Assembly: GCF_013122565.1 (NCBI RefSeq)
Contig: NZ_CP053258.1
Length of the DNA stretch: 64,000 nt
Strand: one strand, 5' to 3'
Origin: Escherichia coli
GTDB taxonomy: Bacteria; Pseudomonadota; Gammaproteobacteria; Enterobacterales; Enterobacteriaceae
In this document: piece after piece, positions 20,322 through 46,797 of the stretch
Layout of the letters: the number at the start of each line of letters is the position of its first letter
Position numbering within the stretch: the first letter of the stretch is position 1
The notes under the pieces: generated by a model
Told to the model about the DNA's origin: nothing
Databases searched by the model: none
Seen by the model: only the letters and a program-made list of their open reading frames with translations
Translations under genes and position numbers: made by a program

Positions 20322-21920
20322 TTAACGTAACGGCATAATGGGTGTGATATGTCCATTATGCCGGGCGGGCGGCGGTTGGCTGCCCGCCAGCCATTTGGGA
20401 AAATCACGTAGTGGCATCGGCTGTGCGTACAAATACCCTTGCAAAATATGCACGCCATGACGGCGCAAATATTTCGCCTGTTCTTGCGTTTCCACACCCT
20501 CCGCCACCAGTTCAATATTCAGTCTTTGCCCCAGTGCGATGATGATATCGGTCACCGTCGAGTTAACCGCGTCAGAACCTATAGCTGCGGTAAATGACTT
20601 ATCAATTTTCAGCACGTCAGGACGTAATGTTTCAAGCCAGGAAAATGAACTGTTGCCGGTGCCGAAGTCATCAATCGCCAGTTTGACGTTTTTACGATGT
20701 AGCTCGCGGGCAATCCGATAATCAACATCCAGTAAGGCATCGCGTTCGGTGATTTCGAGGATCAGTTGCTGAATCGGGTGAGCGCTAAACCAGTACTGAT
20801 TGAGATCTTTTATCAGCACACCACGGCGAAAATGGCTGGGTGCGACGTTAATACCAACATGAAACTGACTACTCATCGGGAAAACATGGCGCTGACGAAT
20901 GGTTTCTGCCATCACATAGCGGGTCAGTGGCACAATTAAATGATGTTCTTCCGCGATAGGAATAAACACATCCGGCGAAATCCAGCCCTGACGCGGATTG
21001 TTCCAGCGCAGCAAAATCTCTACACCAATACATTGTTGGCTGCGCGCATTAAGCAAAGGCTGACAGAACAATTCGAACTCATGTTGCGCCAGGCCCAGAT
21101 TGATTTCGCGGGAAAAGCTCATCCGGTAAGCGGTCGCCAGCCAGGCGATGTAGCCCACCAGTAAACTTAGCAGCACCGCCAGCGGTAATTGTGTTGGAAG
21201 ATAGTGCCATGCCAGCGCCGTAGCCCCCGGACCATTAACGTTAATGGTAAAAGGAAAGCGTTGCGAAGAAACCTGATAGTTTTCATTGTCTTCAGGTTGC
21301 GGAAGGGAATCTACCAGCCCATTACCATAGAGCAAATGCCGATTGTCCACCGTCAGGCTGGCGCTACTGATTTGCGGCAGTTGTGGCTCAAGGAGCATTG
21401 TCGTCAGTAAGTCGATGTTAATCATCTCCATGACCCCAGCATTGCTACTGCCCGTTGCAGGCGTCCATTGAATCAAAACCGGACTGCCTTTAATCAGGGC
21501 ACGGTCGGTTGTCAGTCGTAAAAGTGGTTGCGGTGCAGGAAGTTCAGCCAGAATGTCCACGACGGGCACATTGCGATAACCAAAAATGCTGGAGCAATAG
21601 AGTGTGCCGTCTTGCACCAGGCCAATGGATCGCACAGTTTGGAGTTTTGCCGCCTGTTTACGTAATGGCAAATGGGCGACAGAGCAGGGCAGACCAATCA
21701 GCGGAAGCAAGACTTCGCTACCTGCCTGTAGGGGAAGCAGTACTTTATCTAATTCTTCTACAGCGTGATTGGCGAATTGTACTACTCGTTGTTGATTTAA
21801 GTTACGCTGTGAAATAAATCGCACGCTCAGGGTCGAAGCGAGCGTAACGAGTGCGCAAATCGTACAAACAATCATTCGATTACGGCGATAGGTTTTAATG
21901 ATCCGTTGTGCTTTTTGCAT
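20322..21920 (-). CDS. pdeD: c-di-GMP phosphodiesterase PdeD (YoaD), CSS-motif sensor plus EAL domain
   Basis: ORF 20322-21950; start trimmed to MQKAQRIIKTYRRNRMIV (532 aa); EITE and DDFGTG EAL motifs. Confidence 0.85.
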   Translation of the reverse strand: MQKAQRIIKTYRRNRMIVCTICALVTLASTLSVRFISQRNLNQQRVVQFANHAVEELDKVLLPLQAGSEVLLPLIGLPCSVAHLPLRKQAAKLQTVRSIGLVQDGTLYCSSIFGYRNVPVVDILAELPAPQPLLRLTTDRALIKGSPVLIQWTPATGSSNAGVMEMINIDLLTTMLLEPQLPQISSASLTVDNRHLLYGNGLVDSLPQPEDNENYQVSSQRFPFTINVNGPGATALAWHYLPTQLPLAVLLSLLVGYIAWLATAYRMSFSREINLGLAQHEFELFCQPLLNARSQQCIGVEILLRWNNPRQGWISPDVFIPIAEEHHLIVPLTRYVMAETIRQRHVFPMSSQFHVGINVAPSHFRRGVLIKDLNQYWFSAHPIQQLILEITERDALLDVDYRIARELHRKNVKLAIDDFGTGNSSFSWLETLRPDVLKIDKSFTAAIGSDAVNSTVTDIIIALGQRLNIELVAEGVETQEQAKYLRRHGVHILQGYLYAQPMPLRDFPKWLAGSQPPPARHNGHITPIMPLR

Positions 21921-22007
21921 GCGGGCCACCCTGTAAGCGTATGGCGACAAACGCCTGACGCAACAGTGGAAGTGTAGTGGGGAAAATTACAGCAGACGAG
22001 AAAGCGG

Positions 22008-22040
22008 GGATAAATTCGCCCATCCGTTGCAGATGGGCGA
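22008..22040 (-). terminator. Putative terminator downstream of sdaA
   Basis: Stem cgcccatc / gatgggcg with 7-nt loop just past the sdaA stop; the U-tract is weak. Confidence 0.45.
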
Positions 22041-22050
22041 GTAAGAAGTA

Positions 22051-23415
22051 TTAGTCACACTGGACTTTGATTGCCAGACCACCGCGTGAGGTTTCGCGGT
22101 ATTTGGCGTTCATGTCCTTACCGGTTTCGTACATCGTTTCGATGACCTTATCCAGCGAGACGCGCGGTGCACTGGTGCGGCGCAGAGCCATCCGTGCGGC
22201 GTTAATCGCCTTCACAGAGGCAATGGCATTACGCTCAATGCACGGCACCTGAACCTGCCCTGAAACCGGGTCGCAGGTTAAACCAAGGTTGTGTTCCATG
22301 CCAATTTCCGCCGCCACGCAAACCTGTTCCGGGCTACCGCCCAGCAGTTCTGCAAGACCCGCAGCAGCCATTGAACAGGCAACACCCACTTCGCCCTGGC
22401 AACCAACTTCCGCACCGGAAATAGAGGCGTTCATTTTATACAATGCACCAATCGCGCCCGCTGCCATAAAGTAACGGGTATAGATGTCCGGGCTGACCGA
22501 TTCAATAAAGTGGTCATAGTAAGCCAGCACTGCCGGAACGATACCGCAGGCACCGTTGGTTGGCGCAGTTACCACACGACCACCGGCGGCGTTTTCTTCG
22601 TTAACTGCCAGCGCAAACATGTTTACCCAGTCAATGACATTCATCGGATCGTTAGACAGTTTATCGCTGGAAACCAGCATCCGGCGCAGGGCAGACGCAC
22701 GACGTGGCACGCGCAGCGGGCCTGGCAGTACACCTTCGGTGTTCATCCCGCGATCGATACATGCCTGCATGGTTTGCCAGACATGCGCGAAATACTCGTC
22801 GATCTCTTTCTTGCTGTGCAGCGCCAGTTCGTTCTGCATAGCGAGACCAGACAGCGAATAGCCGGTTTCATTACAGTACGCGAGCAGTTCGGTGGCAGAT
22901 TTGAACGGATACGGCACGCTCACTTCGTTGGCAGCATCCTGACCAAAGTGTTCTTCATCGACGATAAAACCGCCGCCGATGGAATAATAAGTTTTGCTGT
23001 AGACGACTTCATCGCCGTTATAGGCGTGGATTTGCATACCGTTTTCATGCAGCGGCAGGTTGCCGTTATGAAAACGCATCCCGTTGTCGCGCGGGAAATC
23101 CACTTCATGCTGTCCCTGTGCCAGCAGCAGACGTTCGCGCTCTTCTACGTCGCGAATAAAACCGGGAATACTGTCGATATCCACGGTGGCAGGTTCGTTA
23201 CCTGCAAGACCCATAATAATGGCGATATCGGTGTGGTGGCCTTTACCCGTCAGCGACAGTGAACCATAAACGTCCACGGCAACGCGAGTAATGCTATCCA
23301 GTAAGCCTTTTTCGACCAGATCATCGACGAACTGTTTACCTGCCTTCATAGGCCCTACGGTATGGGAAGATGAGGGACCAATCCCCACCTTAAACATGTC
23401 GAATAGACTAATCAC
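22051..23415 (-). CDS. sdaA: L-serine dehydratase 1
   Basis: 454-aa ORF starting [29 protein letters not shown]. Confidence 0.95.
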
Positions 23416-23598
23416 GATAATACTCCTGACAAGGTGACTGGACTTCCAGTAACGAACTAATAACAGCGCATAGTGTAAGAGGGAACGCGGCGACTGGCTT
23501 AACTATTCACATGAATTAAACTAATCAAAAACCGCGATTTAACTAATATTGCGATGATTGTCTCAAGTAGTGTTTTGTAGATGTAAAGATAAGTATAG

Positions 23599-24177
23599 TC
23601 AGGGTTTCACACCAATTTGCAGCGCCAGCTCACGAATTATGCCTGCGGTCATTCCCCATACAAAATACTGTTCGTACCAGGACAGCCATACCCGATGTGA
23701 ATCGCCACGGCGGTAGATATCTAAAGGGTGATAACGACCCAGATGTAATGCCTGGGCGAGCGGCATTTCAAACACCGCCGAGACTTCATCTTCACTGGCG
23801 CGATACGGCAGATCGGGCGGGATAATGCCGACCACTGGGGTTACCTGGTAGCCAGTTACGCTATCGACGGGCGGCAGCACGCCGATAACTTCAACGGCGG
23901 AAGGCGGTATAGCAACCTCTTCTTCAGCTTCGCGCAGCGCGGCGGCGATAACTGATGCGTCCGTGTCATCGACTGCACCTCCAGGGAATGCCACTTGTCC
24001 AGCGTGTTTACGCAGATGAATTGAACGCTGAGTCAGCAACAACCCCGGTTGCGGTCGACGGACGATGGGGATTAACACGGCAGCCTGACGATGATTTAGG
24101 GTTTCCCGGTTAATTTGCGGGCGCAAAAGTTGAAAGCGCGATAAAAAATCATCAAGCGTCAGGCTACGGTATTCCAC
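23599..24177 (-). CDS. nudL: Nudix CoA pyrophosphohydrolase NudL (YeaB)
   Basis: 192-aa ORF with Nudix box [23 protein letters not shown]. Confidence 0.9.
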
Positions 24178-24180
24178 GTC

Positions 24181-25542
24181 TTACTTCTCCAGTTGCTTCA
24201 GGATACGATTAACTTTATCAAAAGTTTCCTGATATTCCGCTTCTTCCTGGCTATCGGCGACAATTCCACCGCCCGCAGAGCAGAAAATTTGTCCGTTAAT
24301 GGCAGTCAGCGTGCGGATAGTAATGCTGGTGTCCATGTTGCCGCAAAAGCTCAAATAGCCAATGCTGCCGCACCAGGCATTGCGTCGCTGCGGTTCCAGT
24401 TCGTCGATAATTTCCATAGCCCGTACTTTCGGAGCCCCGGTTATTGAACCACCAGGAAAAGCTGCGCGCAGCAGATCGCTGGCGTGTAACTGTTCTGGTA
24501 GTCGCGCCGTTATGGTGCTGACCAGATGATGCACGGCAGGGAAGGGTTCCACCACGAACAGCTCTGGTACTTTTACCGAACCTGCTACGGCAACACGACC
24601 GATATCATTACGCATTAAATCGACAATCATCAGATTTTCGGCACGATCTTTCGCTGAGTTCGCCAGTTTTTCTGCTTGTTTGCTATCCTCCTGAGGATCG
24701 GGCAGGCGCGGTAGCGTGCCTTTAATAGGGCGGGTCTGGATTTCACTATTATCACAAAGAATAAACCGCTCTGGCGAAAGGCTTAAAATTGCACCCTGTT
24801 CAAGACGTAAAAAAGCGCTAAATGGCGCGCGGTTGGCCTGATTAAGCTGAAGGAATGCCTGCCATTCATCGCCAGAATAGGTCGCATGAAAACGCTGGGC
24901 GAGATTCACCTGATAGCAATCACCGCTGTGCAGATATTCCTGTACCTGGCGAAATTTTTCGCCGTACTGCTCGCGGGTCATATTGGATTGCCAGTCGGAA
25001 GTGAGCGTGAAATCTTCCTGCGGGGAGAATTGCTGGCTTTCCAGCCAGACCCGACGGGCATTGACATCATTATGACTCAGCAAAGAAACTGTTTGACGCT
25101 GGTGGTCGACAATGAGCGCCCAATCGTAGATACCCACTGCCATATCGGGCAGAACGATATCTTGTTCCGCAATTTCTGGCATTGACTCAAAACGGCGACC
25201 CAGATCGTAGCCAAACAACCCCAGCGCGCCGCCCTGAAATGGCAAATCTTCGTTATGCGCTGGGCGGATGTCTGCGCGATCCAGCACCCGCTGTAGCACC
25301 TGTAGCGGGTCATCTGTAGTCGTTGTGCGTTTTTCGCCTTCACTAACAACGGTTTCTTTACCGGAAGTGGTTAAAGTGCAAATCGGCTCGGCGACCACAA
25401 TATCAAAGCGACTATGCGGATGTTTGGCATAGCCGGAGTGTAACAACATCGCCCACGGCAGGTGGCTTAAGCGGGAGAAATAAAATTCAGCGGCGTCCTG
25501 ACGCCAGGGTAAAGTAATCACAGCGGGAGATAACGTCTTCAT
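24181..25542 (-). CDS. pabB: Aminodeoxychorismate synthase component I
   Basis: 453-aa ORF starting MKTLSPAVITLPWRQDAAEFYFSRLSHLPWAMLLHSGYA, with chorismate-binding domain. Confidence 0.95.
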   Translation of the reverse strand: MKTLSPAVITLPWRQDAAEFYFSRLSHLPWAMLLHSGYAKHPHSRFDIVVAEPICTLTTSGKETVVSEGEKRTTTTDDPLQVLQRVLDRADIRPAHNEDLPFQGGALGLFGYDLGRRFESMPEIAEQDIVLPDMAVGIYDWALIVDHQRQTVSLLSHNDVNARRVWLESQQFSPQEDFTLTSDWQSNMTREQYGEKFRQVQEYLHSGDCYQVNLAQRFHATYSGDEWQAFLQLNQANRAPFSAFLRLEQGAILSLSPERFILCDNSEIQTRPIKGTLPRLPDPQEDSKQAEKLANSAKDRAENLMIVDLMRNDIGRVAVAGSVKVPELFVVEPFPAVHHLVSTITARLPEQLHASDLLRAAFPGGSITGAPKVRAMEIIDELEPQRRNAWCGSIGYLSFCGNMDTSITIRTLTAINGQIFCSAGGGIVADSQEEAEYQETFDKVNRILKQLEK

Positions 25543-25615
25543 CAGTCCTGACTCTACTGGCTATGTGCCGGGTAGCATGAAATAATTAGCGCCAACAATT
25601 TAGCAGGAGTTAACA

Positions 25616-25795
25616 ATGTTTGCAGGTTTACCTTCACTCACCCATGAACAGCAGCAAAAAGCTGTCGAGCGGATCCAGGAACTGATGGCACAAGGGATGA
25701 GCAGCGGCCAGGCAATCGCGTTGGTGGCAGAAGAGCTGCGTGCCAACCATTCCGGCGAGCGAATCGTGGCGCGTTTTGAGGATGAAGACGAGTAA
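25616..25795 (+). CDS. yoaH: UPF0181 small protein YoaH, 59 aa
   Basis: ATG at 25616 preceded by AGGAG SD; translates to [59 protein letters not shown]. Below the ORF-track size cutoff. Confidence 0.8.
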
Positions 25796-25853
25796 CACAC
25801 TAATCCGTATTGATTTCGTTATACAAGCCGATGATTATTTGATTGTGAGAAAA

Positions 25854-25886
25854 AGGACGCTTTTTATATGTGATTAAAAGCGTCCT
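25854..25886. terminator. Hairpin between convergent yoaH and yoaC (bidirectional terminator candidate)
   Basis: Stem aggacgctttt / aaaagcgtcct with 11-nt loop, flanked by A-run and T-run. Confidence 0.55.
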
Positions 25887-25914
25887 GACCCATTTATGCT
25901 GATATAAATTTAAC

Positions 25915-26214
25915 TCAGACCAGTGCTTTTAGTTCTTCCTGCATATATGTTGAAAAGTATTCAGGATTTTTAATCACAGAGCGTTCACCTGTCTCCATTT
26001 TTTTTGCCCATCCAACCATTTTTTCCGTGAACCCAGGGTTCCAGCCTTCCTGGTCAGCTCGCGCCGTAATATCAGCGGCACTCGCGGGTACTCCCAGTTC
26101 TTTTAAATATTTAAAGATTCCCTTCGCCGTGCTTTCATTCATCGAACTTGGTGTTGGCGCTGATACATCCATGGCACCAATGAAATCCAGGGCTTTATCT
26201 ATTACAGCAGGCAT
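25915..26214 (-). CDS. yoaC: DUF1889 protein YoaC
   Basis: ORF 25915-26274; start trimmed to MPAVIDKALDFIGAMDVSAP (99 aa). Confidence 0.8.
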   Translation of the reverse strand: MPAVIDKALDFIGAMDVSAPTPSSMNESTAKGIFKYLKELGVPASAADITARADQEGWNPGFTEKMVGWAKKMETGERSVIKNPEYFSTYMQEELKALV

Positions 26215-26635
26215 ATTCTTATCCTTAAAATTAACCATGTTATCGATAAGGCTATATATGACCTTAATTTGCATCTAATATCAAAGGGATTATAACGATA
26301 TGGCACGAGTTAACCTGTTGACATTCAGGTGTTTTAAAGGTAGCAGCTCATGGTGTGTTATCCAGTAAGATGGAGAAAATTAACGGTCAGTCCGCACGCT
26401 ATAACCAGATTGTTCAGCTAAGAAAGAAAACCAGAGTTGCTAATCAAAGGGCGAACACAACGGCATAGTTATGTTTATTTATATAGTTAGTTTTATAGAT
26501 AAAATTGAAATTATAAAAATAAATAATGAATTAGCAGAAGCATCAACAGTAATATCTTATTCTCTGGTCGATTTATGTAAAACCGACCAGTATTATCGAT
26601 AAATTATCGTCTGACTTATTTTGCTTCGATAAAGC

Positions 26636-26980
26636 TTACACCGCAGCCACAATCTTAATTTCAACTTTATACTTCGGGTTCATCAAACCCGCTTGTACCG
26701 TGCAGCGCACCGGCGCATGACCCGCGACAACCCAGGCATCCCACGCTTTATTCATCGCCGCGAAGTCGTTTTTATCGGCCAGGAAAATGGTGGCATCCAG
26801 AATGCTCGATTTATTGCTGCCCTGTTTTTCCAGCACGGCGTCAATCTGCGCCAGCGTGTTGGCGGTTTGCTCAAAGGCATCGGCGTCGAGGTTTTCCGGT
26901 ACACCAGTGTAGTAGAGCGTGTTGTTGTGGATTACTACATCAGACCAGCGGGCTTCAGCATCGATACGAACGATAGTCAT
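26636..26980 (-). CDS. yoaB: RidA/YjgF-family protein YoaB
   Basis: ORF 26636-27028; start trimmed to MTIVRIDAEARWSDVVIHNN (114 aa). Confidence 0.85.
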   Translation of the reverse strand: MTIVRIDAEARWSDVVIHNNTLYYTGVPENLDADAFEQTANTLAQIDAVLEKQGSNKSSILDATIFLADKNDFAAMNKAWDAWVVAGHAPVRCTVQAGLMNPKYKVEIKIVAAV

Positions 26981-27087
26981 CATTTTGTCCTCATTATACT
27001 TCCATTTTCGTGCTGCAAAGACTGCCACAATGTGAGGTCGCCGTCATCACTTCAACTGGCGAAAGCGCCCTCATCCTGACATAATCC

Positions 27088-27103
27088 CTGTTCAAATCAA
27101 CAG
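27088..27103 (+). promoter_or_regulatory. LexA (SOS) box upstream of yoaA
   Basis: Exact CTGT-N8-ACAG (CTGTtcaaatcaACAG), 9 nt upstream of the yoaA GTG start, with a CATAAT -10-like hexamer at 27080-27085. Confidence 0.55.
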
Positions 27104-27111
27104 GGGGTAGT

Positions 27112-29022
27112 GTGACGGACGATTTTGCACCAGACGGTCAGCTGGCGAAAGCGATACCAGGCTTTAAGCCGCGAGAACCACAGCGACAGATGGCGGTAGC
27201 CGTCACCCAGGCGATAGAAAAAGGCCAGCCGCTAGTGGTGGAAGCAGGAACCGGTACGGGCAAAACCTACGCTTACCTGGCCCCTGCGCTGCGGGCGAAA
27301 AAGAAAGTCATTATCTCGACCGGCTCAAAAGCGTTGCAGGATCAGCTCTACAGCCGCGATTTGCCAACGGTCTCAAAGGCGTTGAAATACACGGGCAACG
27401 TGGCGTTGCTGAAAGGGCGCTCAAACTATCTCTGCCTCGAACGTCTCGAACAGCAGGCGCTGGCGGGCGGCGATCTGCCGGTACAAATCTTAAGCGATGT
27501 GATCCTCCTGCGCTCCTGGTCCAATCAAACAGTCGATGGCGATATCAGCACCTGCGTCAGCGTGGCGGAAGATTCGCAGGCGTGGCCGCTGGTCACCAGC
27601 ACCAACGACAACTGTCTTGGCAGCGACTGCCCGATGTATAAAGATTGCTTTGTGGTCAAAGCACGTAAAAAAGCGATGGACGCCGATGTGGTGGTGGTAA
27701 ACCATCATCTCTTTCTGGCGGATATGGTGGTTAAAGAGAGTGGATTTGGCGAGTTGATCCCGGAAGCGGACGTCATGATCTTCGACGAAGCCCACCAGCT
27801 ACCGGACATTGCCAGCCAGTATTTTGGTCAGTCACTCTCCAGTCGACAACTGCTCGACCTGGCAAAAGACATCACCATCGCCTACCGCACCGAATTAAAA
27901 GACACCCAGCAGTTACAAAAGTGCGCTGATCGTCTTGCCCAGAGTGCGCAGGATTTTCGTCTGCAACTCGGTGAACCAGGTTATCGCGGTAACCTGCGTG
28001 AGCTGTTAGCTAATCCGCAAATTCAGCGGGCATTTTTACTGCTCGATGACACCCTGGAACTTTGTTATGACGTGGCGAAACTGTCACTGGGGCGTTCCGC
28101 GTTGCTGGATGCGGCATTTGAACGCGCCACGTTATATCGCACGCGACTCAAACGGCTAAAAGAGATCAATCAACCGGGCTATAGCTATTGGTACGAATGC
28201 ACTTCGCGCCATTTTACTCTGGCTCTCACACCGCTCAGCGTGGCGGATAAATTCAAAGAGTTAATGGCGCAAAAACCAGGTAGCTGGATCTTTACCTCAG
28301 CAACGCTGTCGGTGAACGACGATCTGCATCATTTCACCTCGCGACTTGGCATCGAACAGGCAGAGTCGTTGCTGTTACCCAGCCCCTTTGATTACAGCCG
28401 TCAGGCGTTACTCTGTGTGCCGCGCAACCTGCCGCAAACCAATCAACCGGGCTCCGCACGGCAACTGGCGGCAATGCTGCGACCGATCATCGAAGCTAAC
28501 AACGGTCGTTGTTTTATGCTTTGTACCTCGCACGCCATGATGCGCGATCTGGCCGAGCAGTTCCGCGCCACCATGACGCTTCCCGTTTTGTTGCAGGGGG
28601 AAACTAGCAAAGGGCAACTGTTGCAGCAATTTGTCAGCGCCGGTAACGCGCTTCTTGTGGCAACCAGTAGTTTCTGGGAAGGGGTGGACGTGCGTGGCGA
28701 TACATTGTCATTGGTGATTATCGACAAATTGCCGTTTACCTCGCCGGATGATCCACTGTTAAAAGCGCGCATGGAAGATTGCCGTTTGCGTGGTGGTGAC
28801 CCGTTCGATGAAGTGCAGCTGCCGGATGCGGTCATTACTCTCAAGCAGGGAGTAGGGCGACTGATTCGCGACGCCGACGATCGCGGGGTTTTGGTGATTT
28901 GTGACAATCGGCTGGTGATGCGCCCTTACGGCGCGACGTTTCTCGCCAGTCTGCCGCCAGCGCCGCGCACCCGTGACATTGCCCGTGCGGTTCGTTTCCT
29001 TGCGATACCATCCTCCAGGTAA
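27112..29022 (+). CDS. yoaA: DinG-family ATP-dependent DNA helicase YoaA
   Basis: 636-aa ORF starting (GTG) MTDDFAPDGQLAKAIPGFKPREPQRQMAV, with Walker A AGTGTGKT. Confidence 0.9.
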   Translation: MTDDFAPDGQLAKAIPGFKPREPQRQMAVAVTQAIEKGQPLVVEAGTGTGKTYAYLAPALRAKKKVIISTGSKALQDQLYSRDLPTVSKALKYTGNVALLKGRSNYLCLERLEQQALAGGDLPVQILSDVILLRSWSNQTVDGDISTCVSVAEDSQAWPLVTSTNDNCLGSDCPMYKDCFVVKARKKAMDADVVVVNHHLFLADMVVKESGFGELIPEADVMIFDEAHQLPDIASQYFGQSLSSRQLLDLAKDITIAYRTELKDTQQLQKCADRLAQSAQDFRLQLGEPGYRGNLRELLANPQIQRAFLLLDDTLELCYDVAKLSLGRSALLDAAFERATLYRTRLKRLKEINQPGYSYWYECTSRHFTLALTPLSVADKFKELMAQKPGSWIFTSATLSVNDDLHHFTSRLGIEQAESLLLPSPFDYSRQALLCVPRNLPQTNQPGSARQLAAMLRPIIEANNGRCFMLCTSHAMMRDLAEQFRATMTLPVLLQGETSKGQLLQQFVSAGNALLVATSSFWEGVDVRGDTLSLVIIDKLPFTSPDDPLLKARMEDCRLRGGDPFDEVQLPDAVITLKQGVGRLIRDADDRGVLVICDNRLVMRPYGATFLASLPPAPRTRDIARAVRFLAIPSSR

Positions 29023-33536: not shown

Positions 33537-33950
33537 CTACAAATCCAACACCAGGCGTTTACCCTTCGCACGCGAACAACAGATCAACATACTTTGCTGG
33601 CTGGCACGCTCTTCATCGCTAAAATACTGATCCCGATGGTCAGCTTCACCTTCCAGTATTGCCGTTTCGCAGGTTCCGCATACCCCTTCACGACATAAAC
33701 ATTCCACTTTCGCGGCTTTATTATTTTCAATAACCTGCAAAATAGTCATCTCTTCCGGCACCACAAACTCTTTTCCGGAACGGGCAAGCACCAGGGTAAA
33801 TGCATCGCCGGTTTTGTCTTCGATAGCAAATTGCTCAAAGTGCAGCGTATCGGCGGCGATGTCCAGACGCGCAGCTTCACTTCTTACCGCTTCAATTAGC
33901 GCCTCGGGGCCACAGGTATAAACGTGTGTGCCAGGTTCGATATCCGCCAT
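33537..33950 (-). pseudogene. yeaX: 3' fragment of yeaX (cntB-like oxidoreductase): end of NAD-binding domain plus plant-type 2Fe-2S ferredoxin domain
   Basis: ORF 33537-34016 (159 aa). From MADIEPGTHVYTCGPEALIEAVRSEAARL onward it looks like the C-terminus of an FNR-type reductase followed by a 2Fe-2S domain (CREGVCGTCE ... LICC). The N-terminal FAD/FMN-binding domain is absent and yeaW/yeaV are not found upstream. Confidence 0.6.
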
Positions 33951-33992
33951 TGACATCCTCCACGTCCTGAAGGACGAGGAGGATGTCAATGG
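33947..33992. repeat. 46-bp near-perfect palindrome at the 5' edge of the yeaX fragment
   Basis: ccattgacatcctccacgtcc-tgaa-ggacgaggaggatgtcaatgg: two 21-nt arms with one mismatch. The minus-strand reading of the left arm gives GGAGG, 6 nt spacer, ATG (the MADIEPG start). Confidence 0.85.
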
Positions 33993-34136
33993 CAGGGTAT
34001 GAGTTGTATATTGCATTTAACGAATTAATTATTTTTGTGTTATATAAATTAAACAATTAAGAATTCGGAAAGCCATAAAACACGAAACGGAAACAATAAA
34101 AGGTGAAATGACGCAGGTTATTAACTGCAAAGAACG

Positions 34137-38223: not shown

Positions 38224-38233
38224 AGAGGTGACG

Positions 38234-38308: not shown

Positions 38309-38310
38309 CT

Positions 38311-38409
38311 TTATGCTCCCGGGGCAGCATAGCCGCCAATAAAAAACCATGCTAAAAATACGACCGCTGTAATGAAGATTACAACCGGAAAAATAATACC
38401 GATTCGCAT
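38311..38409 (-). CDS. yoaK: Small membrane protein YoaK, 32 aa
   Basis: Minus-strand translation MRIGIIFPVVIFITAVVFLAWFFIGGYAAPGA; its stop lies 2 nt upstream of the yoaJ start. Below the ORF-track size cutoff. Confidence 0.7.
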   Translation of the reverse strand: MRIGIIFPVVIFITAVVFLAWFFIGGYAAPGA

Positions 38410-38441
38410 GTTATCACCAATCAAAAGGATGTGAATACGCC

Positions 38442-39467
38442 TCAGGAATGTAGCGCTGGATGCGCGACAAAAGGTGTTTTCTGTTTGTGTTTTTTCTCCT
38501 GATACATCGCGATATCGGCAGCATGCAGGGCACTGTCTGCATCGGTTGTTTCAGGATCGACTTCTACTATGCCAAGACTGGCACCAGGATAATACAAATC
38601 AACATCACCTAAGTGATATTCTCCGCGTATTTGCTGCTGAATACGTTCTCGCAGCGACGAAATATCCGCATTCTCGTTGTTCAGTGAAACAACCAAAAAC
38701 TCATCACCGCCGAGACGACCAATAACTTCGCCATTTTGCTGGAGCGTATTAAGGCGCTCGCCAACCTGAATGAGGAACAAATCACCACTATTATGACCAA
38801 AACGATCGTTGATTAATTTGAAGTTATCCAGATCGATAAACGCGATCATTATCTTATGGTTAAGATGCCGGGCGAGGGAAAACAGCGTCGTCAGATTTTC
38901 AAAAATCGCCCGCCGATTCGGTAGCCCGGTTAACGAGTCGGTATACGATTGCGCAATCAGCGCAGCATTGGCTTCGCGCAGCTGTTCAACCAACGCCTCT
39001 TTTTGAATATATTGTGCAATCAGTCCGGCGAATAACTGTAAAACCTGTTCCGCGCGTTCACTCCACTGGCGCTTCTCACTGCTGGCGGCGCAAAGCGTGC
39101 CATAGAATGATCCATCCGGTAAGTGAATTGGCGTGCTCAGAAATGTGGTGATGCCAAGATTGCGTGCCGCAATACAGTCGCCCCAACGGTCAGGGACTTC
39201 ATCGCTGAAAAAGCAGTTTTCATCAATGGCGCGTTTGCATAACGAGTAATCCCACGAGACGGTAAAATTCTCCGGGATGTGCATTTTCTGGCTGTTACGG
39301 GCAAACATAATATGCTGCAGGCGCGCTTCGACATCCACTTTGGTCAGGTAGGTTGATTCCATATCAGTGACCATTTCCAGCATCTCCAGAAGCTGTCGGA
39401 CCAGACTTTCCAGTGACTGTTCTTTGGCAAGGGATTGCGAGACGCGGTCGATGATCTGATCTGACAC
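38442..39467 (-). CDS. dgcP: Diguanylate cyclase DgcP (YeaP), GAF plus GGDEF
   Basis: ORF 38442-39596; start trimmed to GTG (VSDQIIDRVSQSLAKEQ), 341 aa; intact RLGGDEF motif. Confidence 0.85.
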   Translation of the reverse strand: MSDQIIDRVSQSLAKEQSLESLVRQLLEMLEMVTDMESTYLTKVDVEARLQHIMFARNSQKMHIPENFTVSWDYSLCKRAIDENCFFSDEVPDRWGDCIAARNLGITTFLSTPIHLPDGSFYGTLCAASSEKRQWSERAEQVLQLFAGLIAQYIQKEALVEQLREANAALIAQSYTDSLTGLPNRRAIFENLTTLFSLARHLNHKIMIAFIDLDNFKLINDRFGHNSGDLFLIQVGERLNTLQQNGEVIGRLGGDEFLVVSLNNENADISSLRERIQQQIRGEYHLGDVDLYYPGASLGIVEVDPETTDADSALHAADIAMYQEKKHKQKTPFVAHPALHS

Positions 39468-39649
39468 GAAACAACTCCAGGATACGGCGGGTAAATGCTG
39501 ATTATTTAATCTTTGCAGGCATGATAAAACATCATCAACAAAGATGAAACAATGCGTAATATGATTTGAGTGAATGTAATAAAAATAGTGCTGCAAAACA
39601 AAACGATACCGCGATACTCTAAGTCTGGATAAATATGTGAGATCAATAA

Positions 39650-39904
39650 ATGAAAATTATCAGTTTTGTTCTGCCTTGCTTGCTGGTCCTGGCTGGTTGT
39701 TCAACCCCTTCTCAGCCAGAAGCACCCAAACCGCCGCAGATTGGTATGGCAAATCCGGCGTCGGTCTATTGCCAGCAGAAGGGCGGGACGCTCATTCCAG
39801 TGCGGACAGCGCAAGGGGTCAGCAACAATTGCAAATTACCGGGCGGTGAAACGATTGATGAATGGGCATTGTGGCGACGGGACCATCCGGCTGGTGAAAA
39901 ATAA
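39650..39904 (+). CDS. yoaF: DUF333 lipoprotein YoaF
   Basis: 84-aa ORF with lipobox MKIISFVLPCLLVLAGC. Confidence 0.85.
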   Translation: MKIISFVLPCLLVLAGCSTPSQPEAPKPPQIGMANPASVYCQQKGGTLIPVRTAQGVSNNCKLPGGETIDEWALWRRDHPAGEK

Positions 39905-39925
39905 CCGCCGGATGCTGTACTAAAA

Positions 39926-40273
39926 TCACAAGCTACGTAGCCAGTCGGCCAGCACCAGCGCATGGTTCTGCGTGGTGTTTTTGGCTGAGTAGAGCAGGGT
40001 CAGCGGCTGTTTTTTGGCGATGTCCGCCAGCCGCTTTCCTTCTTGCTCGTGTTGCGCCAGTTCTGCAAGATATTGCTCGCGAAAGGTTGCAAAATCGACG
40101 ACTTCGCCGTGAAAGGCTTTGCGCAGTTCCGTTGACGGTGTGATTTCTTTATCCCACTCATCAAGGGCTAAATCGGTTTTTTTGATACCGCGCGGCCAGA
40201 GGCGGTCGACCAGTACGCGATAACCATCGCTCTGTTCAGCCGGATCATAAACGCGTTTGCACTGAATATTCAT
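39926..40273 (-). CDS. yeaO: DUF488 protein YeaO
   Basis: ORF 39926-40294; start trimmed to MNIQCKRVYDPAEQSDGYRV (115 aa). Confidence 0.85.
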   Translation of the reverse strand: MNIQCKRVYDPAEQSDGYRVLVDRLWPRGIKKTDLALDEWDKEITPSTELRKAFHGEVVDFATFREQYLAELAQHEQEGKRLADIAKKQPLTLLYSAKNTTQNHALVLADWLRSL

Positions 40274-40327
40274 CGTGTTTGTTCTCCCTTTCACGCATGA
40301 TTTGTCACGTCACTATAGCACCGGATA

Positions 40328-41509
40328 TTAGCGAATTTCTTTGTCTCTCCCGGCGCAAAGTCCGAAAATCGCCATCAGTAGTGACAGTATTGCAACACCC
40401 ATCAGTGGTGCGGACCAGTCACCGATAGCATCGTGTATTTTCCCCATCAGCGGCGGCCCACAGGCTGCCAGCAAATACCCGACGGATTGTGCCATCCCCG
40501 AGAGTGCCGCCGCCTGATGCGCAGAACTAGCCCGCAGACCAATGAACGTCAATCCCAGTATCATTGCTGCGCCGGAACCAAAGCCGAAAAGCAGAGTCCA
40601 GGTGATCGCGTGCGCTGGCATAAAGCAGAGCCCAACCGCGCCCACTGCGCACATCAAGGCAACGAACGCTGCAATACCACGCTGATCTTTCACATGATGT
40701 AAGAAAAGAGGGATCAGCAAACCGGGCGCTGCTGTGGCTAGTTGCAGCAAACCATGCAGTGAACCCGCCTGTGCTTCGCTATAGCCGTGACTGATGAGGA
40801 TCGCCGGAAGCCAGCCAATAATCACGTAATAGACCAGTGAGTTGATCCCAAGAAACAATGTTACCTGCCAGGCAAGCGGCGAACGCCAGATACCCCGAGT
40901 ATGTAAGGCGCGTGAAGTACTCAAATTTGCATGTTGTTGGCTTCGCCACTGTGGCAGCCATAAAAAAAGAGCCAGCAGAGGAAAACACATCAGCATGAGC
41001 AAGGCGCCTTGCCAGCCAAAACCGTTCAAAGCCAGCGGCACTACCATAGCCGATCCCAGGGCCGCCGCAGCTCCCATTGTCAGGGAATATGCGCCGGTAA
41101 GTCTGGCGACGGAATGAGGGAAATCGCGTTTAATTAATCCTGGCAGTAAGACATTACCTAATGCAATCCCACCACCAATGACCGCTGTACCGCCAAATAA
41201 TAAGTAAGGCGAAGGGAGAGAGCGAATTGCGATACCTGCACAGATCAAAAGTAACGCGGCAAACAGGCTACGTTCCATACCAAAACGTCGCGCCACCGGG
41301 GCAGCCAGAGGTGAGATTAGCGCAAAGGCCAATAATGGCAGGGTGGTTAATAAGCCGGTTTGCGCCGTCGTCAGCGAGTAAGCGGAACGAATCGTATCGA
41401 GTAACGGTGCTGCGCCGGTGAAGGTGACGCGTAATGTTGTGGCAATCATTAGAATGCCAGCGATAAGGACAATCCTGTTTTTGCCGCTTAATGAAGTTGA
41501 ACAGGTCAT
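40328..41509 (-). CDS. nimT: MFS exporter NimT (YeaN)
   Basis: 393-aa multi-TM ORF starting MTCSTSLSGKNRIVLIAGILMIATTLRV. Confidence 0.9.
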   Translation of the reverse strand: MTCSTSLSGKNRIVLIAGILMIATTLRVTFTGAAPLLDTIRSAYSLTTAQTGLLTTLPLLAFALISPLAAPVARRFGMERSLFAALLLICAGIAIRSLPSPYLLFGGTAVIGGGIALGNVLLPGLIKRDFPHSVARLTGAYSLTMGAAAALGSAMVVPLALNGFGWQGALLMLMCFPLLALFLWLPQWRSQQHANLSTSRALHTRGIWRSPLAWQVTLFLGINSLVYYVIIGWLPAILISHGYSEAQAGSLHGLLQLATAAPGLLIPLFLHHVKDQRGIAAFVALMCAVGAVGLCFMPAHAITWTLLFGFGSGAAMILGLTFIGLRASSAHQAAALSGMAQSVGYLLAACGPPLMGKIHDAIGDWSAPLMGVAILSLLMAIFGLCAGRDKEIR

Positions 41510-41605
41510 ATGCTTCTCATTGTTACAAACGAGGCTGTACCTTACCGTTTTTATTGTTATGTTGAATCAAGCTAAAATGACAAATTATCGCTAAATTCGG
41601 ACAAA

Positions 41606-42427
41606 ATGATGCACAGGTTGAATCTCAATGGCTATGAACCCGACCGACACCATGAAGCCGCGGTCGCATTTTGTATTCACGCCGGAACGGATGAGTTAAC
41701 CAGTCCTGTACATCAGCACCGCAAAGGACAGCTGATACTGGCATTACATGGTGCAATTACCTGTACGGTGGAAAATGCTTTGTGGATGGTGCCGCCACAA
41801 TATGCGGTTTGGATACCGGGCGGGGTGGAACATAGTAATCAAGTGACAGCTAACGCTGAACTCTGTTTTCTGTTTATCGAACCCAGCGCAGTGACAATGC
41901 CGACAACATGTTGCACATTGAAAATATCGCCCTTATGCCGGGAATTAATTTTAACTCTGGCAAACAGGACGACGACTCAGCGTGCTGAGCCGATGACCCG
42001 CAGATTAATTCAGGTCCTGTTTGATGAACTCCCTCAGCAGCCACAACAACAGCTGCACCTACCCGTTTCTTCTCATCCTAAAATCCGCGCGATGGTGGAG
42101 ATGATGGCGAAAGAGCCCGTCGAGTGGGGGTCATTGGGGCAATGGGCTGGCTTTTTTGCGATGAGTGAACGCAATCTTGCCCGACTGATAGTAAAAGAGA
42201 CGGGGTTGAGTTTTCGCCAGTGGCGACAGCAGTTACAGCTGATTATGGCGCTTCAGGGATTAGTGAAAGGCGATACTGTACAGAAAGTTGCTCATACGCT
42301 GGGGTATGATTCAACAACGGCCTTTATTACTATGTTTAAGAAAGGCCTGGGGCAAACGCCAGGCCGATATATTGCGGGATTAACTACTGTTTCCCCACAA
42401 TCAGCGAAACCAGACCCGCGGCAATAA
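41606..42427 (+). CDS. nimR: AraC-family regulator NimR (YeaM)
   Basis: 273-aa ORF with cupin N-domain and C-terminal AraC HTH; divergent from nimT. Confidence 0.9.
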
Positions 42428-42830
42428 GCGGGCCAACCGGTACGCCGCGAAACAGCGCTACGCCTAAAACAGTGCCCACCAGCAGCCCAGCAACCAGTTG
42501 CGGCTGGCTGCCCATTAACGTCACGCCGCGCCCACCCAGCCAGGAGACAATAACGCCTACTGCAATTGCCACCAGCGATTTCCAGTTCAGAAACGAGTGA
42601 ATCAAGGTTGAGGGCGGTAGCGTCCCGCTGGCGATGGGGGCCATAACGCCAATCGTCAGAATGATTATCCCGATACTTAGCCCCTGTTTTTCAATCCACG
42701 GGAAAAAGGTGCTTAACGGTGTGACGCGGACAATGATCAACACCAGAATTGAAACGGCGACAGTGGTGTTATGACTGATAAAGCCCAGCGCAGCTAACCC
42801 GAGCAGGATCAGCAAAGTGACATCAAACAT
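42384..42830 (-). CDS. yeaL: UPF0756 membrane protein YeaL
   Basis: 148-aa multi-TM ORF starting [27 protein letters not shown]. Confidence 0.85.
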
Positions 42831-42999
42831 CGTGGTTTCCTTGCCAAAAAATAATAAGCCTGCTTACTTTACGCTTGCTGCAGGAAGGAAGTAGAAAATC
42901 TTTACGTTTTTTGCATAAAAAATCAGGCGAACTGTCATCAAACTGCCATTTGTGCACGCTAACAATAACGTGAAAACAGCTATCTCCCGGGGGCATGCT

Positions 43000-43104
43000 A
43001 TGAACGATCAAATGTTCGTCGAGACACTGATTATCACGTCATCGTTTTTTGCCATTGCGGTTGTGCTGGTTTTGTCCGTTCTGCTTATTGAACGGACAGG
43101 CTAG
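43000..43104 (+). CDS. yoaI: Small membrane protein YoaI, 34 aa
   Basis: ATG at 43000 translates to [34 protein letters not shown]; its stop abuts the convergent proX stop. Below the ORF-track size cutoff. Confidence 0.7.
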
Positions 43105-43608
43105 TTACGCAGTGCGGCGGAAATTGATCAGTTCTGGTTGCGCAATGCGCAAATAATCCGCGGTTTTCAAAATAACGGATTTATCCAGCATGCCTGCATT
43201 GAAGGCGATTTCATCAAATCGTTCGAAGAGTAGGGGGTCGGCAACCAGTTTGAGTTTTGGATGGAAGCTGAAAGGGGGGATCGCGCCGAAGACACAGCCT
43301 GTGAGTTCATCGACTTCCGCCGGGCTGGCCAACGAAGCGCGTAATCCGCCTATATGGCTGGCGAGTTGGCTCAGATCGGCCTGTTGATCGGCAGCGAGGA
43401 TCGCCAGAACATGTTGATTTACGCCATTGCCTTTGACTTTACATACCAGTGCCTTAGCCCCCTGGCCTAAAGCGGTGCCACGAATTTCTGACACCGCTTC
43501 GCATTTACCTACCGCTTCATGGGTAACGACGCGGAAGTCAGCACCTTCTTGTGATAATAAAGCGATTAACCGCTGATGCGTCACGCTTCCTTTAGCCATT
43601 TCAGTCAT
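43105..43608 (-). CDS. proX: YbaK/ProX-family aminoacyl-tRNA deacylase (YeaK)
   Basis: 167-aa ORF starting MTEMAKGSVTHQRLIALLSQEGADFRVVTHEAVGKCE. Confidence 0.9.
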   Translation of the reverse strand: MTEMAKGSVTHQRLIALLSQEGADFRVVTHEAVGKCEAVSEIRGTALGQGAKALVCKVKGNGVNQHVLAILAADQQADLSQLASHIGGLRASLASPAEVDELTGCVFGAIPPFSFHPKLKLVADPLLFERFDEIAFNAGMLDKSVILKTADYLRIAQPELINFRRTA

Positions 43609-43650
43609 TTCACGCTCCTGAGATTACAAGCAAACAACCACAGAAGATTA

Positions 43651-45141
43651 TCATGAACGGCTGTTTTTGTTCTGCTTATTGACATATAAACGCTCATCGG
43701 AAGCTTTATACGCATCATGTAACGTATCGTTTTCTTTCATCGCGTAAATACCGGAAGAGAAGCCAATCTCTTTCTGCGGCGCGATATGTTGCAGACGTTT
43801 TTCGATACGTTCAGGCAGTTGTGCTGCAATTTGCGGCGTCGAATCGACAAGAATGATGCAGAATTCATCGCCACCGAGTCGGATGGCATAATCACTTTTA
43901 CGAATCGACAGTTTAATCGCCTGAGCTAATAACGTAATCGCTAAATCCCCCTCCTGATGACCGAGGGTGTCATTTATTTGCTTTAACTTGTCCATGTCAA
44001 TTGCAATAAACATCACCGAAGAACCGGATTGCACCAGTTTTTGCAACCGCTGCTCCAGTTCAGGGGTTAAAATTTTGCGATTATAGAGTCCAGTCATCGC
44101 ATCACTAATATTTTCTCGCGACACATTTTGGTATAAACGGAAGTGCATCCGCACCATATTCAGCAAAATTAACGCCGTCAAAATCCAGAACAGAACGCTT
44201 TTCCACGAAGACGTGATAAAGTAAAGAATATCAATGGATAACGAGACACGAATGCCGCCCGGTAAGTCATGGACGTAACTGACATACTGGAACAGATTAT
44301 CTTCGCTCTGGTTGATGATAATGTCGCGCCCCGAATCTGTATCGGTTAGCGTGACATTGAGAAAACGCCAGAGGAGAGGGCGGTCATGAGTGTAAAAGAT
44401 ATTCCGCAGATTGTTTTTGTTAATATCCAGCAGCACAATCCCTTTTAGCTGCCCTGCAACATACACCGGCGTCAGCAAACTCATCACGTTCTGTTTAGTA
44501 CGCTGATCCTGGTAAATGCTCGACAATACGGTACGCCCGGTAAATACCTTTTCAATATCTTTGCGATCGATGCCAATACTTCCTGACTGCAGGAAGGACC
44601 AGTTATTCATCGCAAAGTATTCAACATTAACCGGCTCATAAAAATAGACATAGCGGTCATTGAGATCGAGATAATAGTGAAATTTCTCTTCGGCCATCCC
44701 AAGACCTGAACCGTAATCATCCTGGTGGCGGTTGCCTTCCACTGCCTGATCAAAAGCGGGTAATAGTGCTGCAGCTTCCACAATTGTGTCGCAGTCAGTG
44801 GATGCGGTTTGTAGTGTGCCGCGTAAGCCCGGGTATTTATGGGCAGTCAGGTTTAAGCCATGGGTATTATTGGCAGACTCAAAAGCCTCGCAGATGGCGC
44901 GCCGCTGTTCTGGCGACACTTCCGACTGCTCAGCAGCGAGAGCGCGCATCACATGCGCGGCAATACTCTGATTCTGATACTTATCATAAAGAAAGGAGGA
45001 GTCTGCTTTCTGCACGATATAGCGCAGATAGGCACTCATTGCTCTGTCGCTGGCGACAAGTTCAAAAATAAGGAAGGAAGATGTCAGCACAATGACACTT
45101 GCGGCGATAAAATGCCGGAGCATTCTATGGTGCAATTTCAT
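43651..45141 (-). CDS. dgcJ: Diguanylate cyclase DgcJ (YeaJ)
   Basis: ORF 43651-45321; start trimmed to MKLHHRMLRHFIAASVIVLTSSFLIF (496 aa); RLGGDEF motif. Confidence 0.85.
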   Translation of the reverse strand: MKLHHRMLRHFIAASVIVLTSSFLIFELVASDRAMSAYLRYIVQKADSSFLYDKYQNQSIAAHVMRALAAEQSEVSPEQRRAICEAFESANNTHGLNLTAHKYPGLRGTLQTASTDCDTIVEAAALLPAFDQAVEGNRHQDDYGSGLGMAEEKFHYYLDLNDRYVYFYEPVNVEYFAMNNWSFLQSGSIGIDRKDIEKVFTGRTVLSSIYQDQRTKQNVMSLLTPVYVAGQLKGIVLLDINKNNLRNIFYTHDRPLLWRFLNVTLTDTDSGRDIIINQSEDNLFQYVSYVHDLPGGIRVSLSIDILYFITSSWKSVLFWILTALILLNMVRMHFRLYQNVSRENISDAMTGLYNRKILTPELEQRLQKLVQSGSSVMFIAIDMDKLKQINDTLGHQEGDLAITLLAQAIKLSIRKSDYAIRLGGDEFCIILVDSTPQIAAQLPERIEKRLQHIAPQKEIGFSSGIYAMKENDTLHDAYKASDERLYVNKQNKNSRS

Positions 45142-45321
45142 GATAAATGGCACTCCTTCGGTTAGTGAAACGAGAAAACCAGATAAAGTTCGATTGCGGC
45201 CTGGCACAGGGGCGCTAATTATACTCATCTCTGCGCCGCTGGGGAGGGGAAATTTAGGGGTAATAGTAATAAATTGTATGCAAAAGCCACGCAAAAAGCA
45301 TGGCTCTGAATATTTTTGCAC

Positions 45322-46797
45322 TTAAATATGATGAATAATCACTTTGTTGCCCCCCTCGCTTTTCGCTTCGCGTAAGGCTTTATCTGCTTCCGTCATGACA
45401 AGCGAGATATTACGCGTGTCACCCGTTGAAAAAACCGTGCCAATACTGATGGTCATTTGTTCAGGAACATCATATCTGTTACTAAAGCCGGTCAGGAGTT
45501 CGACATTTTTACGCATACGTTCCGCAATGATTTTTGCCTGGGCACTATTGAGTTCGGTAAATAGCAAGCCAAACACCTCACCCTCCAGTCGCGCTAAAAT
45601 ATCATCGGGGCGGATGCTTTGCTGGATAATATCGACAATTGAAACCAGCACTTTATCACCCACACGATGTCCCCATTGGGCATTGATACGTTTGAACTGA
45701 TTAATATCAACCAGCATGACACAGAAGTCCTTAACAACAGGTCGCGACAATAATGACTCTACGCTGTTGAAAAAGTAGCGCCGATTATAAATATTGGTCA
45801 GCACATCATGAACTGCCAGTTTGCTGGAGAGTTGCAGTTCCTGAAAAATGTTATAAATCAGAAAAGACACAACAAACAGTTTACTGGAGACTTCAATCCC
45901 GCGACTGATATACCAGATGGTGTAATTATACTCATCCAGAGTCAGTAGAAGTAAGTTACAGCATAGCGATGCCAGACATAATAATGCTATTAACGGCCAT
46001 AGTTCGCTGGCTAATCGTGTACGCATGATAATAAAGAACAGTAAAAATGCCCACAAACAAACCAATATTTTTGTATAGTTGATTCCCCAGGTCGCAGTAT
46101 GGTTGTCCGGACAGTAATCGACGACATACAAAGAATAGTCAGCGTTATAACTGCTCAGATTGTGTGCCAGAAGGGGAAAAACTAAAAAAGGGATCAGCGC
46201 CAGCAACAGGATTGCCATTTTTTTCTTATTGTTGTCAAGGATGTTGTCTTTTCCATAACAAAAGAGCGCCAGCGAGGTTAAACAAATAAAACTGAGTTGG
46301 CGGAAAATATAGAAAATAGAAACATCATTCGACTTTGTCTGAATCAGTGTACTGTCGCTGATAGGTTTATGGATAACAACAATAGTTTCAACTAAATAGA
46401 TAAGGCCACTTAAAAACGCAAGACTTAAAATGAGTGTTGGTAGAATTTGTTTGTTAGTGAAATATTTCATTAACATGAAAAGAAAAATGATGGCGTTAAG
46501 GAAAAACAAAGCCACAACGACCATCAGATAATTCATCTGTGGGATGAGTTTTACATTCGTGTTTTCGTTATATAAGGTGGTGATGCAAAATAAAATTAAC
46601 GTCAGCAATAAACTGAAAATAAAAAAGCTTTGAGCTTTTAATTTTTGTGTACCCATAGAAACCATAAAAAGGAGAGCAATATGAGTGCTGGATTTTATTG
46701 ATGGCAGAGATATATAGTTTTGACCAGGATCAATTTTCGTTAACGATAAAAAATATTTAAAGAATAACCCCAGGGAAATACGTGTTGACCGAATCAT
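45322..46797 (-). CDS. cdgI: c-di-GMP-binding protein CdgI (YeaI), degenerate GGDEF domain
   Basis: 491-aa membrane protein with EGEVF in place of GGDEF (ARLEGEVFGLLF). Confidence 0.85.
   Translation of the reverse strand: MIRSTRISLGLFFKYFLSLTKIDPGQNYISLPSIKSSTHIALLFMVSMGTQKLKAQSFFIFSLLLTLILFCITTLYNENTNVKLIPQMNYLMVVVALFFLNAIIFLFMLMKYFTNKQILPTLILSLAFLSGLIYLVETIVVIHKPISDSTLIQTKSNDVSIFYIFRQLSFICLTSLALFCYGKDNILDNNKKKMAILLLALIPFLVFPLLAHNLSSYNADYSLYVVDYCPDNHTATWGINYTKILVCLWAFLLFFIIMRTRLASELWPLIALLCLASLCCNLLLLTLDEYNYTIWYISRGIEVSSKLFVVSFLIYNIFQELQLSSKLAVHDVLTNIYNRRYFFNSVESLLSRPVVKDFCVMLVDINQFKRINAQWGHRVGDKVLVSIVDIIQQSIRPDDILARLEGEVFGLLFTELNSAQAKIIAERMRKNVELLTGFSNRYDVPEQMTISIGTVFSTGDTRNISLVMTEADKALREAKSEGGNKVIIHHI

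Follow-up and report, generated by a model that had tools for sequence, protein, structure and literature searches.

Four c-di-GMP signalling genes within 26 kb of an Escherichia coli chromosome, one of them with a degenerate GGDEF motif

Results

Here we describe a 64,000-nucleotide stretch of an Escherichia coli chromosome (contig NZ_CP053258.1, assembly GCF_013122565.1; hereafter the window, in which all positions are counted) that carries four genes of cyclic di-GMP (c-di-GMP) signalling, namely pdeD, dgcP, dgcJ and cdgI. An original prediction, made from the letters of the window, had placed these four genes within 26 kb and had pointed out that CdgI carries EGEVF instead of GGDEF. All four are present and were correctly named, as judged by their Pfam domains, the equivalog model for DgcJ and the gene order and gene lengths of strain K-12, and EGEVF is indeed found at residues 405-409 of CdgI. 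The features of the locus are as follows.

pdeD (yoaD), 20322-21920, minus strand: 532 amino acids, membrane c-di-GMP phosphodiesterase with a periplasmic CSS domain and an EAL domain
pdeD motifs, minus strand: CSS motif 21588-21596; EILLR 21006-21020; DDFGTG 20655-20672
dgcP (yeaP), 38442-39467, minus strand: 341 amino acids, GTG start, cytoplasmic GAF-GGDEF diguanylate cyclase
dgcP GGDEF motif, 38697-38711, minus strand
dgcJ (yeaJ), 43651-45141, minus strand: 496 amino acids, membrane GAPES1-GGDEF diguanylate cyclase
dgcJ motifs, minus strand: GGDEF 43861-43875; I-site RKSD 43891-43902
cdgI-dgcJ spacer, 45142-45321, minus strand: 180 bp, with a hairpin at 45284-45306, TATAAT at 45218-45223 and the ribosome-binding site AAGGAGT at 45152-45158
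cdgI (yeaI), 45322-46797, minus strand: 491 amino acids as annotated, MASE4 and a degenerate GGDEF domain
cdgI motifs, minus strand: EGEVF 45571-45585 (residues 405-409); I-site RPDD 45601-45612; FKRINA within 45679-45708

The Pfam matches of all four open reading frames (ORFs) far exceed the gathering scores, which upholds every one of the predicted GGDEF and EAL assignments. Full-length significant matches to the GGDEF family (PF00990, cut-off 23.8 bits) were obtained for dgcP (140 bits, 6.1e-41), dgcJ (134 bits, 4.4e-39) and cdgI (153 bits, 9e-45). These are accompanied by GAF_2 in dgcP (1.7e-10), GAPES1 in dgcJ (7.9e-151) and MASE4 in cdgI (1.7e-48), while pdeD matches EAL (2.7e-58, 197.6 bits) and the CSS-motif family PF12792 (4.6e-43, 147.5 bits). 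DgcJ also scores 744.7 bits against its NCBIfam equivalog model NF040885 (cut-off 500), covering model positions 1-492 of 493. The ORFs as listed by program are longer than the genes at the 5' end in three cases: 20322-21950 for pdeD (minus strand), where the frame opens at an upstream TTG and the annotated start is the ATG at 21920, 38442-39596 for dgcP (minus strand) and 43651-45321 for dgcJ (minus strand). A phmmer scan of all six-frame segments of the 64 kb with the four domains as queries returned exactly three GGDEF ORFs and one EAL ORF, and no further ORF of either kind.

Collinearity was examined by comparing 24 kb around the four genes with 5426 complete RefSeq E. coli genomes. A single collinear match was found in 5425 of them, and the features annotated beneath it read pdeD, sdaA, fadD ... 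dgcP, dgcJ, cdgI. Positions 15347-55185 of the window are collinear with K-12 MG1655 in reverse orientation at 98.6% identity, and the four genes have the K-12 order and exactly the K-12 lengths (RefSeq starts), with no frameshift and no internal stop. They are standard members of the known E. coli inventory of 29 GGDEF/EAL genes and sit at their K-12 locations. Compared with K-12 we counted 4 amino acid differences in PdeD, 2 in DgcP, 1 in DgcJ and 8 in CdgI; the ratio of nonsynonymous to synonymous substitution rates (dN/dS) is 0.065 for pdeD, 0.035 for dgcP, 0.031 for dgcJ and 0.10 for cdgI. Substitutions in the window as a whole are predominantly synonymous.

Even the closest of the 5426 genomes reaches no more than 98.4-98.7% nucleotide identity, a value close to that for K-12. 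The present strain therefore belongs to a lineage that the collection samples poorly. Its PdeD, DgcJ and CdgI are identical to the GenBank proteins QJU23972, QJU23998 and QJU23999, respectively. A Shigella origin, considered in view of the low best identity, is unsupported, as neither insertion sequence (IS) elements nor pseudogenes occur among the four c-di-GMP genes and the GenBank proteins are labelled E. coli.

As the signature of an active diguanylate cyclase we took an A-site GG[DE]EF together with the substrate-binding Asn/Asp in FKxxND. Both elements are found in DgcP (GGDEF and, at the substrate-binding motif FK/LKxIND, KLIND) and in DgcJ (GGDEF and KQIND). DgcJ also has an I-site at the canonical distance, RxxD lying five residues upstream of the A-site (RKSD-YAIRL-GGDEF); DgcP has no RxxD and shows QNGE at that position. 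For an active EAL domain we looked for an EAL-type motif and the catalytic and metal-binding residues ExLxR, N, ExxE, DD, K, E and Q. PdeD carries the full set (EILLR, EITE, DDFGTG, KID, EGVE, QGY), and yoaD is also listed with complete residues in a published motif table that covers yeaI, yeaJ, yeaP and yoaD (PMC3484386). Both cysteines that mark CSS phosphodiesterases of the PdeB/C/D/G/N type, C79 and C109 (the latter within CSS), are present in PdeD as well.

CdgI shows neither cyclase element. It has EGEVF for GGDEF and FKRINA for FKxxND, the Asp being replaced by Ala, and in an alignment to solved cyclases EGEVF falls on GGEEF and INA on IND. The I-site, by contrast, is intact, with RxxD five residues upstream of the A-site (RPDD-ILARL-EGEVF). 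A search with CdgI retrieved homologues down to about 40% identity. Among relatives with at least 64% identity, including those of E. albertii, the A-site is degenerate and varies by lineage (EGEVF, EGDVF, EGEEF, DGEVF, EGNVF, EGKRF), while the RP[DE]D I-site never changes and most GGDEF core residues are invariant. Relatives with at most 61% identity, two Citrobacter proteins among them, have canonical GGEEF and FKxIND, and a Citrobacter relative occupies the same position, X, in the order yeaG-yeaH-X-dgcJ-yeaK. Because the A-site varies, the I-site is fixed and the Citrobacter relatives are canonical, the Escherichia lineage has relaxed the catalytic site and has kept the c-di-GMP-binding site under constraint.

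Two further observations concern cdgI itself. Its orthologues are mostly called at 447 amino acids, beginning MVSMGTQ, and the first 44 codons of the annotated gene (46666-46797) are closed by stops in E. albertii and Citrobacter, for which reason the conserved start is probably M45 at 46665. Natural in-frame deletion fusions also exist in other E. coli strains, namely CdgI(1-116)::DgcJ (P0035), CdgI(1-215)::DgcJ (P0026) and CdgI(1-316)::YeaL (P0017). The cdgI-dgcJ-yeaL stretch is therefore deletion-prone in some strains.

The predicted adjacency of dgcJ and cdgI stands in that the two are neighbouring genes, but the claim that no spacer lies between them is refuted: the dgcJ ATG at 45141 leaves 180 bp (45142-45321). 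The 556-residue dgcJ ORF behind that claim is a mechanical extension from a GTG right after the cdgI TAA, made possible by 60 spacer codons that chance has left without a stop in the frame of dgcJ. When this ORF is aligned to the DgcJ family model, the match begins no earlier than residue 64. RefSeq annotates dgcJ in K-12 and in strain ES5 from the ATG that matches 45141, and the spacer is identical to that of K-12 at 180 of 180 positions, which is why 180 bp is the true spacing.

Immediately after the cdgI stop the spacer folds into a hairpin of -19.4 kcal/mol (z -3.5; 45284-45306), and further on a perfect TATAAT box lies within an invariant ATGAGTATAATTAGCG block. For comparison the loci of E. 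albertii and one Citrobacter were fetched. Their spacers measure 179 bp and 189 bp, respectively, and both carry stops in the cdgI frame, several of them in Citrobacter. What is kept in both is the position of the hairpin (with a different sequence), the ATGAGTATAATTAGCG block and AAGGAGTG-N-ATG; the rest diverges. This conservation lets us infer that hairpin and TATAAT box may act as terminator and dgcJ promoter, roles assigned from conservation because a simple consensus scan did not call them. An operon would be expected to have a short or absent spacer free of terminator and internal promoter, plus co-expression. Instead, cdgI and dgcJ stand 180 bp apart, this interval holds a stable hairpin as well as a conserved TATAAT box and a ribosome-binding site, and the protein levels of the two genes in K-12 are discordant.

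In E. coli (the present strain and K-12) the TAA alone separates the cdgI and dgcJ frames across 45142-45324, the remaining 60 in-frame codons being open. Since the spacers of E. albertii and Citrobacter carry stops in the cdgI frame, the open frame in E. coli looks like a coincidence.

Other features of the window

At 33950-33991 the window has a 42-bp filler where K-12 has 3.25 kb and strain ES5 has 3.43 kb. Lost with this segment are yeaV, yeaW and the 5'-terminal 553 bp of yeaX, and the remnant yeaX ORF (33537-34016, minus strand) retains only the Fer2 domain. Because of this deletion the 26.5-kb span of the four genes is 3.2 kb shorter than in K-12. None of the 5426 complete RefSeq E. coli genomes has the deletion junction, and the 59-nucleotide junction was not found in GTDB species representatives; among the genomes compared the deletion was thus seen only in the present strain.

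Forty of the 42 filler bases form a near-perfect palindrome, TTGACATCCTCCACGTCCTGAAGGACGAGGAGGATGTCAA (33950-33989), which occurs once in the window and folds as RNA at -45 kcal/mol (z -9.7). It belongs to a family of 40-bp palindromes (TTGACATCC...GGATGTCAA). In lambdoid and Shiga toxin (Stx) prophages related members follow the cI repressor gene at a distance of about 14 bp, beside restriction-modification or toxin-antitoxin cassettes; others occur in P1-like phage-plasmids. The first 31 nucleotides match the terminal 31 nucleotides at the tnpB-proximal end of IS609-type elements of the IS200/IS605 family. A 1748-bp IS609-type element is inserted in yoaG, adjoining dgcP, in E. coli strain 1500, and the same 31-mer adjoins ydcO in most E. 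coli genomes. In the literature the palindrome sequence gave one incidental match, in a variant table, which led on to the IS609-type link. The junction palindrome could be the scar of an element that was inserted and then lost, or a small mobile palindrome. The retrieved loci of the palindrome family and of IS609 type are the following.

L009, 3001-4748
L003, 2501-2542
L004, 2001-2040
L005, 1801-1839
L006, 1801-1840

Towards the end of the window two more differences were seen. Compared with K-12 the 9.2-kb ydjE-ydjL cluster is missing, 145 bp standing in its place (55494-55638), and an extra gene for a 270-residue SIMPL/DUF541 protein lies between ansA and sppA (57399-58232; ORF 57444-58256, minus strand). 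Positions 46800-64000 have one contiguous match in only 1197 of the 5426 genomes.

Discussion

We are highly confident that the locus is best explained as an ordinary core segment with four independent genes, in which CdgI is a c-di-GMP-binding protein and cdgI and dgcJ form separate transcription units. Domains, motifs, intactness, the anatomy and conservation of the spacer and the pattern among orthologues come from our own analysis, while c-di-GMP binding by CdgI, the link of DgcJ to NfrB and the expression patterns are taken from the literature.

On this explanation the region running from yoaE through yeaH is ordinary E. coli chromosome. Its four genes belong, independently of one another, to the 29 GGDEF/EAL genes that are standard in the species and do not make up a dedicated signalling island. 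PdeD, with its complete EAL site and periplasmic CSS domain, is predicted to degrade c-di-GMP, which DgcP (with its GAF sensor) and DgcJ (with its periplasmic GAPES1 sensor), both with canonical GGDEF, would make. In K-12 the vegetative DgcP is strongly expressed and abundant, DgcJ is expressed, and the stationary-phase induction of PdeD depends on RpoS (PMC5635695). Infection by phage N4 specifically requires DgcJ, which binds the c-di-GMP-activated glycosyltransferase NfrB (PMC8669469); in K-12 DgcJ acts locally on NfrB, the maker of the surface glycan used by that phage. Being divided by a terminator-like hairpin and by dgcJ's own predicted promoter and its ribosome-binding site, cdgI and dgcJ would be neighbours but separate transcription units.

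CdgI itself has lost the A-site and the substrate-binding Asp and keeps the RxxD I-site, and because of this combination it is most likely a membrane-bound c-di-GMP-binding protein. For K-12, c-di-GMP binding has been shown with the purified GGDEF domain of CdgI, which also contacts other GGDEF domains (Sarenko et al. 2017, PMC5635695), and CdgI has been described as catalytically inactive (PMC10459773). The prediction that CdgI is an effector rather than a cyclase is thereby borne out by the motifs, by the variable A-site and fixed I-site of its orthologues, and by the K-12 literature. One possibility is that CdgI acts via GGDEF-GGDEF contacts with other cyclases. That the functions known from the literature hold in the present strain, and that hairpin and TATAAT box work as terminator and promoter, are the inferential parts of this explanation.

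Several points weigh against it. It rests on sequence analysis and K-12 literature, and function in the present strain is predicted. A consensus scan for promoters and terminators missed the elements of the spacer; what it returned was a single weak promoter-like match across the dgcJ start codon, and no terminator. When 29 GGDEF/EAL genes were placed uniformly at random on 4.64 Mb, some four of them fell within 26.5-29.6 kb in 1.5-2.0% of the simulations. Finally, published views on CdgI activity are not unanimous, because one study lists YeaI among proteins of 'verified diguanylate cyclase activity' and describes a yeaI deletion that the cyclase WspR complemented in one medium and not in another (PMC3484386).

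On the strength of the last point it might be argued that CdgI has kept some diguanylate cyclase activity, weak or conditional, and is not a pure binding protein, which we regard as quite unlikely. Sanchez-Torres et al. (2011) reportedly saw an altered motility phenotype upon point mutation of EGEVF, which would fit residual activity. In CdgI, however, positions one and four of GG[DE]EF no longer hold Gly and Glu, and the Asp of FKxxND is likewise replaced; the A-site differs freely in the Escherichia orthologues, EGKRF and EGNVF included, while the I-site does not vary; and the Hengge and Römling laboratories both call the protein degenerate or inactive. WspR complemented the no-salt lysogeny broth (LB) phenotype of the yeaI deletion, but no complementation was seen in glycerol medium (PMC3484386).

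Could cdgI, then, be a decaying, unexpressed and pseudogene-like relic without function? CdgI is undetectable in K-12 under standard conditions and is cited as CsrA-repressed (PMC5635695), its A-site is degenerate, and deletion variants fuse or truncate the gene in some E. coli strains. Yet the frame is open over its full length with a dN/dS of 0.10 against K-12, no change is seen in the I-site or in most GGDEF core residues of orthologues down to 64% identity, and the protein binds c-di-GMP while its GGDEF domain contacts other GGDEF domains (PMC5635695). We consider a relic very unlikely.

The idea of a functional c-di-GMP module or island, made up of the four genes and held together by selection, is, in our eyes, just as doubtful. 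It has in its favour the low frequency of such clusters in random placements (1.5-2% for four of 29 genes within 26-30 kb), the order yeaG-yeaH-cdgI-dgcJ-yeaK with dgcP nearby, which is kept in E. albertii, and the cdgI-dgcJ adjacency kept in Citrobacter. But about 30 unrelated housekeeping genes lie between the members, and genera as closely related as these would be expected to share the gene order of their core chromosome. Once the adjacent cdgI-dgcJ pair is treated as a single unit, clustering is reached in 24-29% of the simulations, so that the predicted grouping within 26 kb, confirmed as such, is mildly unusual by chance and with the pair as one unit not unusual at all. The three GGDEF domains are distant paralogues (27-29% identical to one another) with unrelated sensor domains in the N-terminal halves, for which reason they are not recent duplicates; on the same grounds we reject the view that the cdgI-dgcJ pair arose by tandem duplication (29% identity between the GGDEF domains). 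Expression classes in K-12 differ as well, with CdgI silent, DgcP vegetative and PdeD RpoS-dependent (PMC5635695). We conclude that the linkage of the four genes is ordinary core-genome linkage and not a module.

More tentatively, and with a low probability in our own estimate, the cdgI-dgcJ adjacency from Citrobacter to Escherichia might reflect a functional pair, in which the upstream MASE4 protein, an active GGEEF cyclase in the ancestor, became in Escherichia an I-site-only c-di-GMP sensor that modulates DgcJ by GGDEF-GGDEF heterodimerisation. Support for this comes from synteny and motif history. If true, CdgI would influence, through DgcJ, the NfrB surface glycan and susceptibility to phage N4.

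Translational linkage of cdgI and dgcJ, as one ORF by stop readthrough or by coupling, has practically no chance of being correct: although the cdgI TAA, the 60 spacer codons and the dgcJ ATG share one frame with no further stop in E. coli, the 179-bp spacer of E. albertii and the Citrobacter spacer contain in-frame stops, the DgcJ family model begins at the annotated ATG, hairpin, conserved TATAAT box and ribosome-binding site lie within the spacer, and CdgI is undetectable in K-12 whereas DgcJ is expressed (PMC5635695). Stop-codon readthrough and a cdgI-dgcJ fusion are contradicted by the E. albertii and Citrobacter spacers.

The four genes, their architectures, the EGEVF of CdgI and c-di-GMP binding by CdgI have all been published for E. 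coli K-12. The present strain carries intact, near-identical copies of these genes, and the significance of finding them here is small. Two outcomes are nevertheless useful. The first is a correction, in that a 180-bp regulatory spacer takes the place of a fused or abutting cdgI-dgcJ pair. The second is a comparative addition: a variable A-site, a fixed I-site and a canonical Citrobacter orthologue at the same locus support the published receptor model of CdgI.

Comparison with known systems

The closest known systems are the K-12 genes themselves. PdeD (YoaD), DgcP (YeaP) and DgcJ (YeaJ) of K-12 have the same position, length, architecture and motifs as their counterparts in the present strain, which differ by 4, 2 and 1 substitutions, respectively. 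K-12 CdgI (YeaI, b1785) occupies the same yeaH-dgcJ locus, is likewise 491 amino acids long with MASE4 and GGDEF domains, carries EGEVF and RPDD, and is 98% identical at the nucleotide level. All 8 substitutions of the present strain fall in the N-terminal or membrane part (residues 3-195), and the GGDEF domain is free of them.

The MASE4-GGDEF cyclases DgcT (YcdT) and DgcX and the Citrobacter orthologue share with CdgI both the MASE4-GGDEF architecture and the RxxD I-site. In contrast to CdgI they retain canonical GGEEF and FKxIND, both of which the Escherichia CdgI lineage has lost. In this respect CdgI resembles the degenerate-GGDEF receptors PopA of Caulobacter and PelD of Pseudomonas, in which the A-site is inactive and the RxxD I-site binds c-di-GMP. 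The N-terminal domains of these two receptors, whose outputs are known, are unrelated to that of CdgI.

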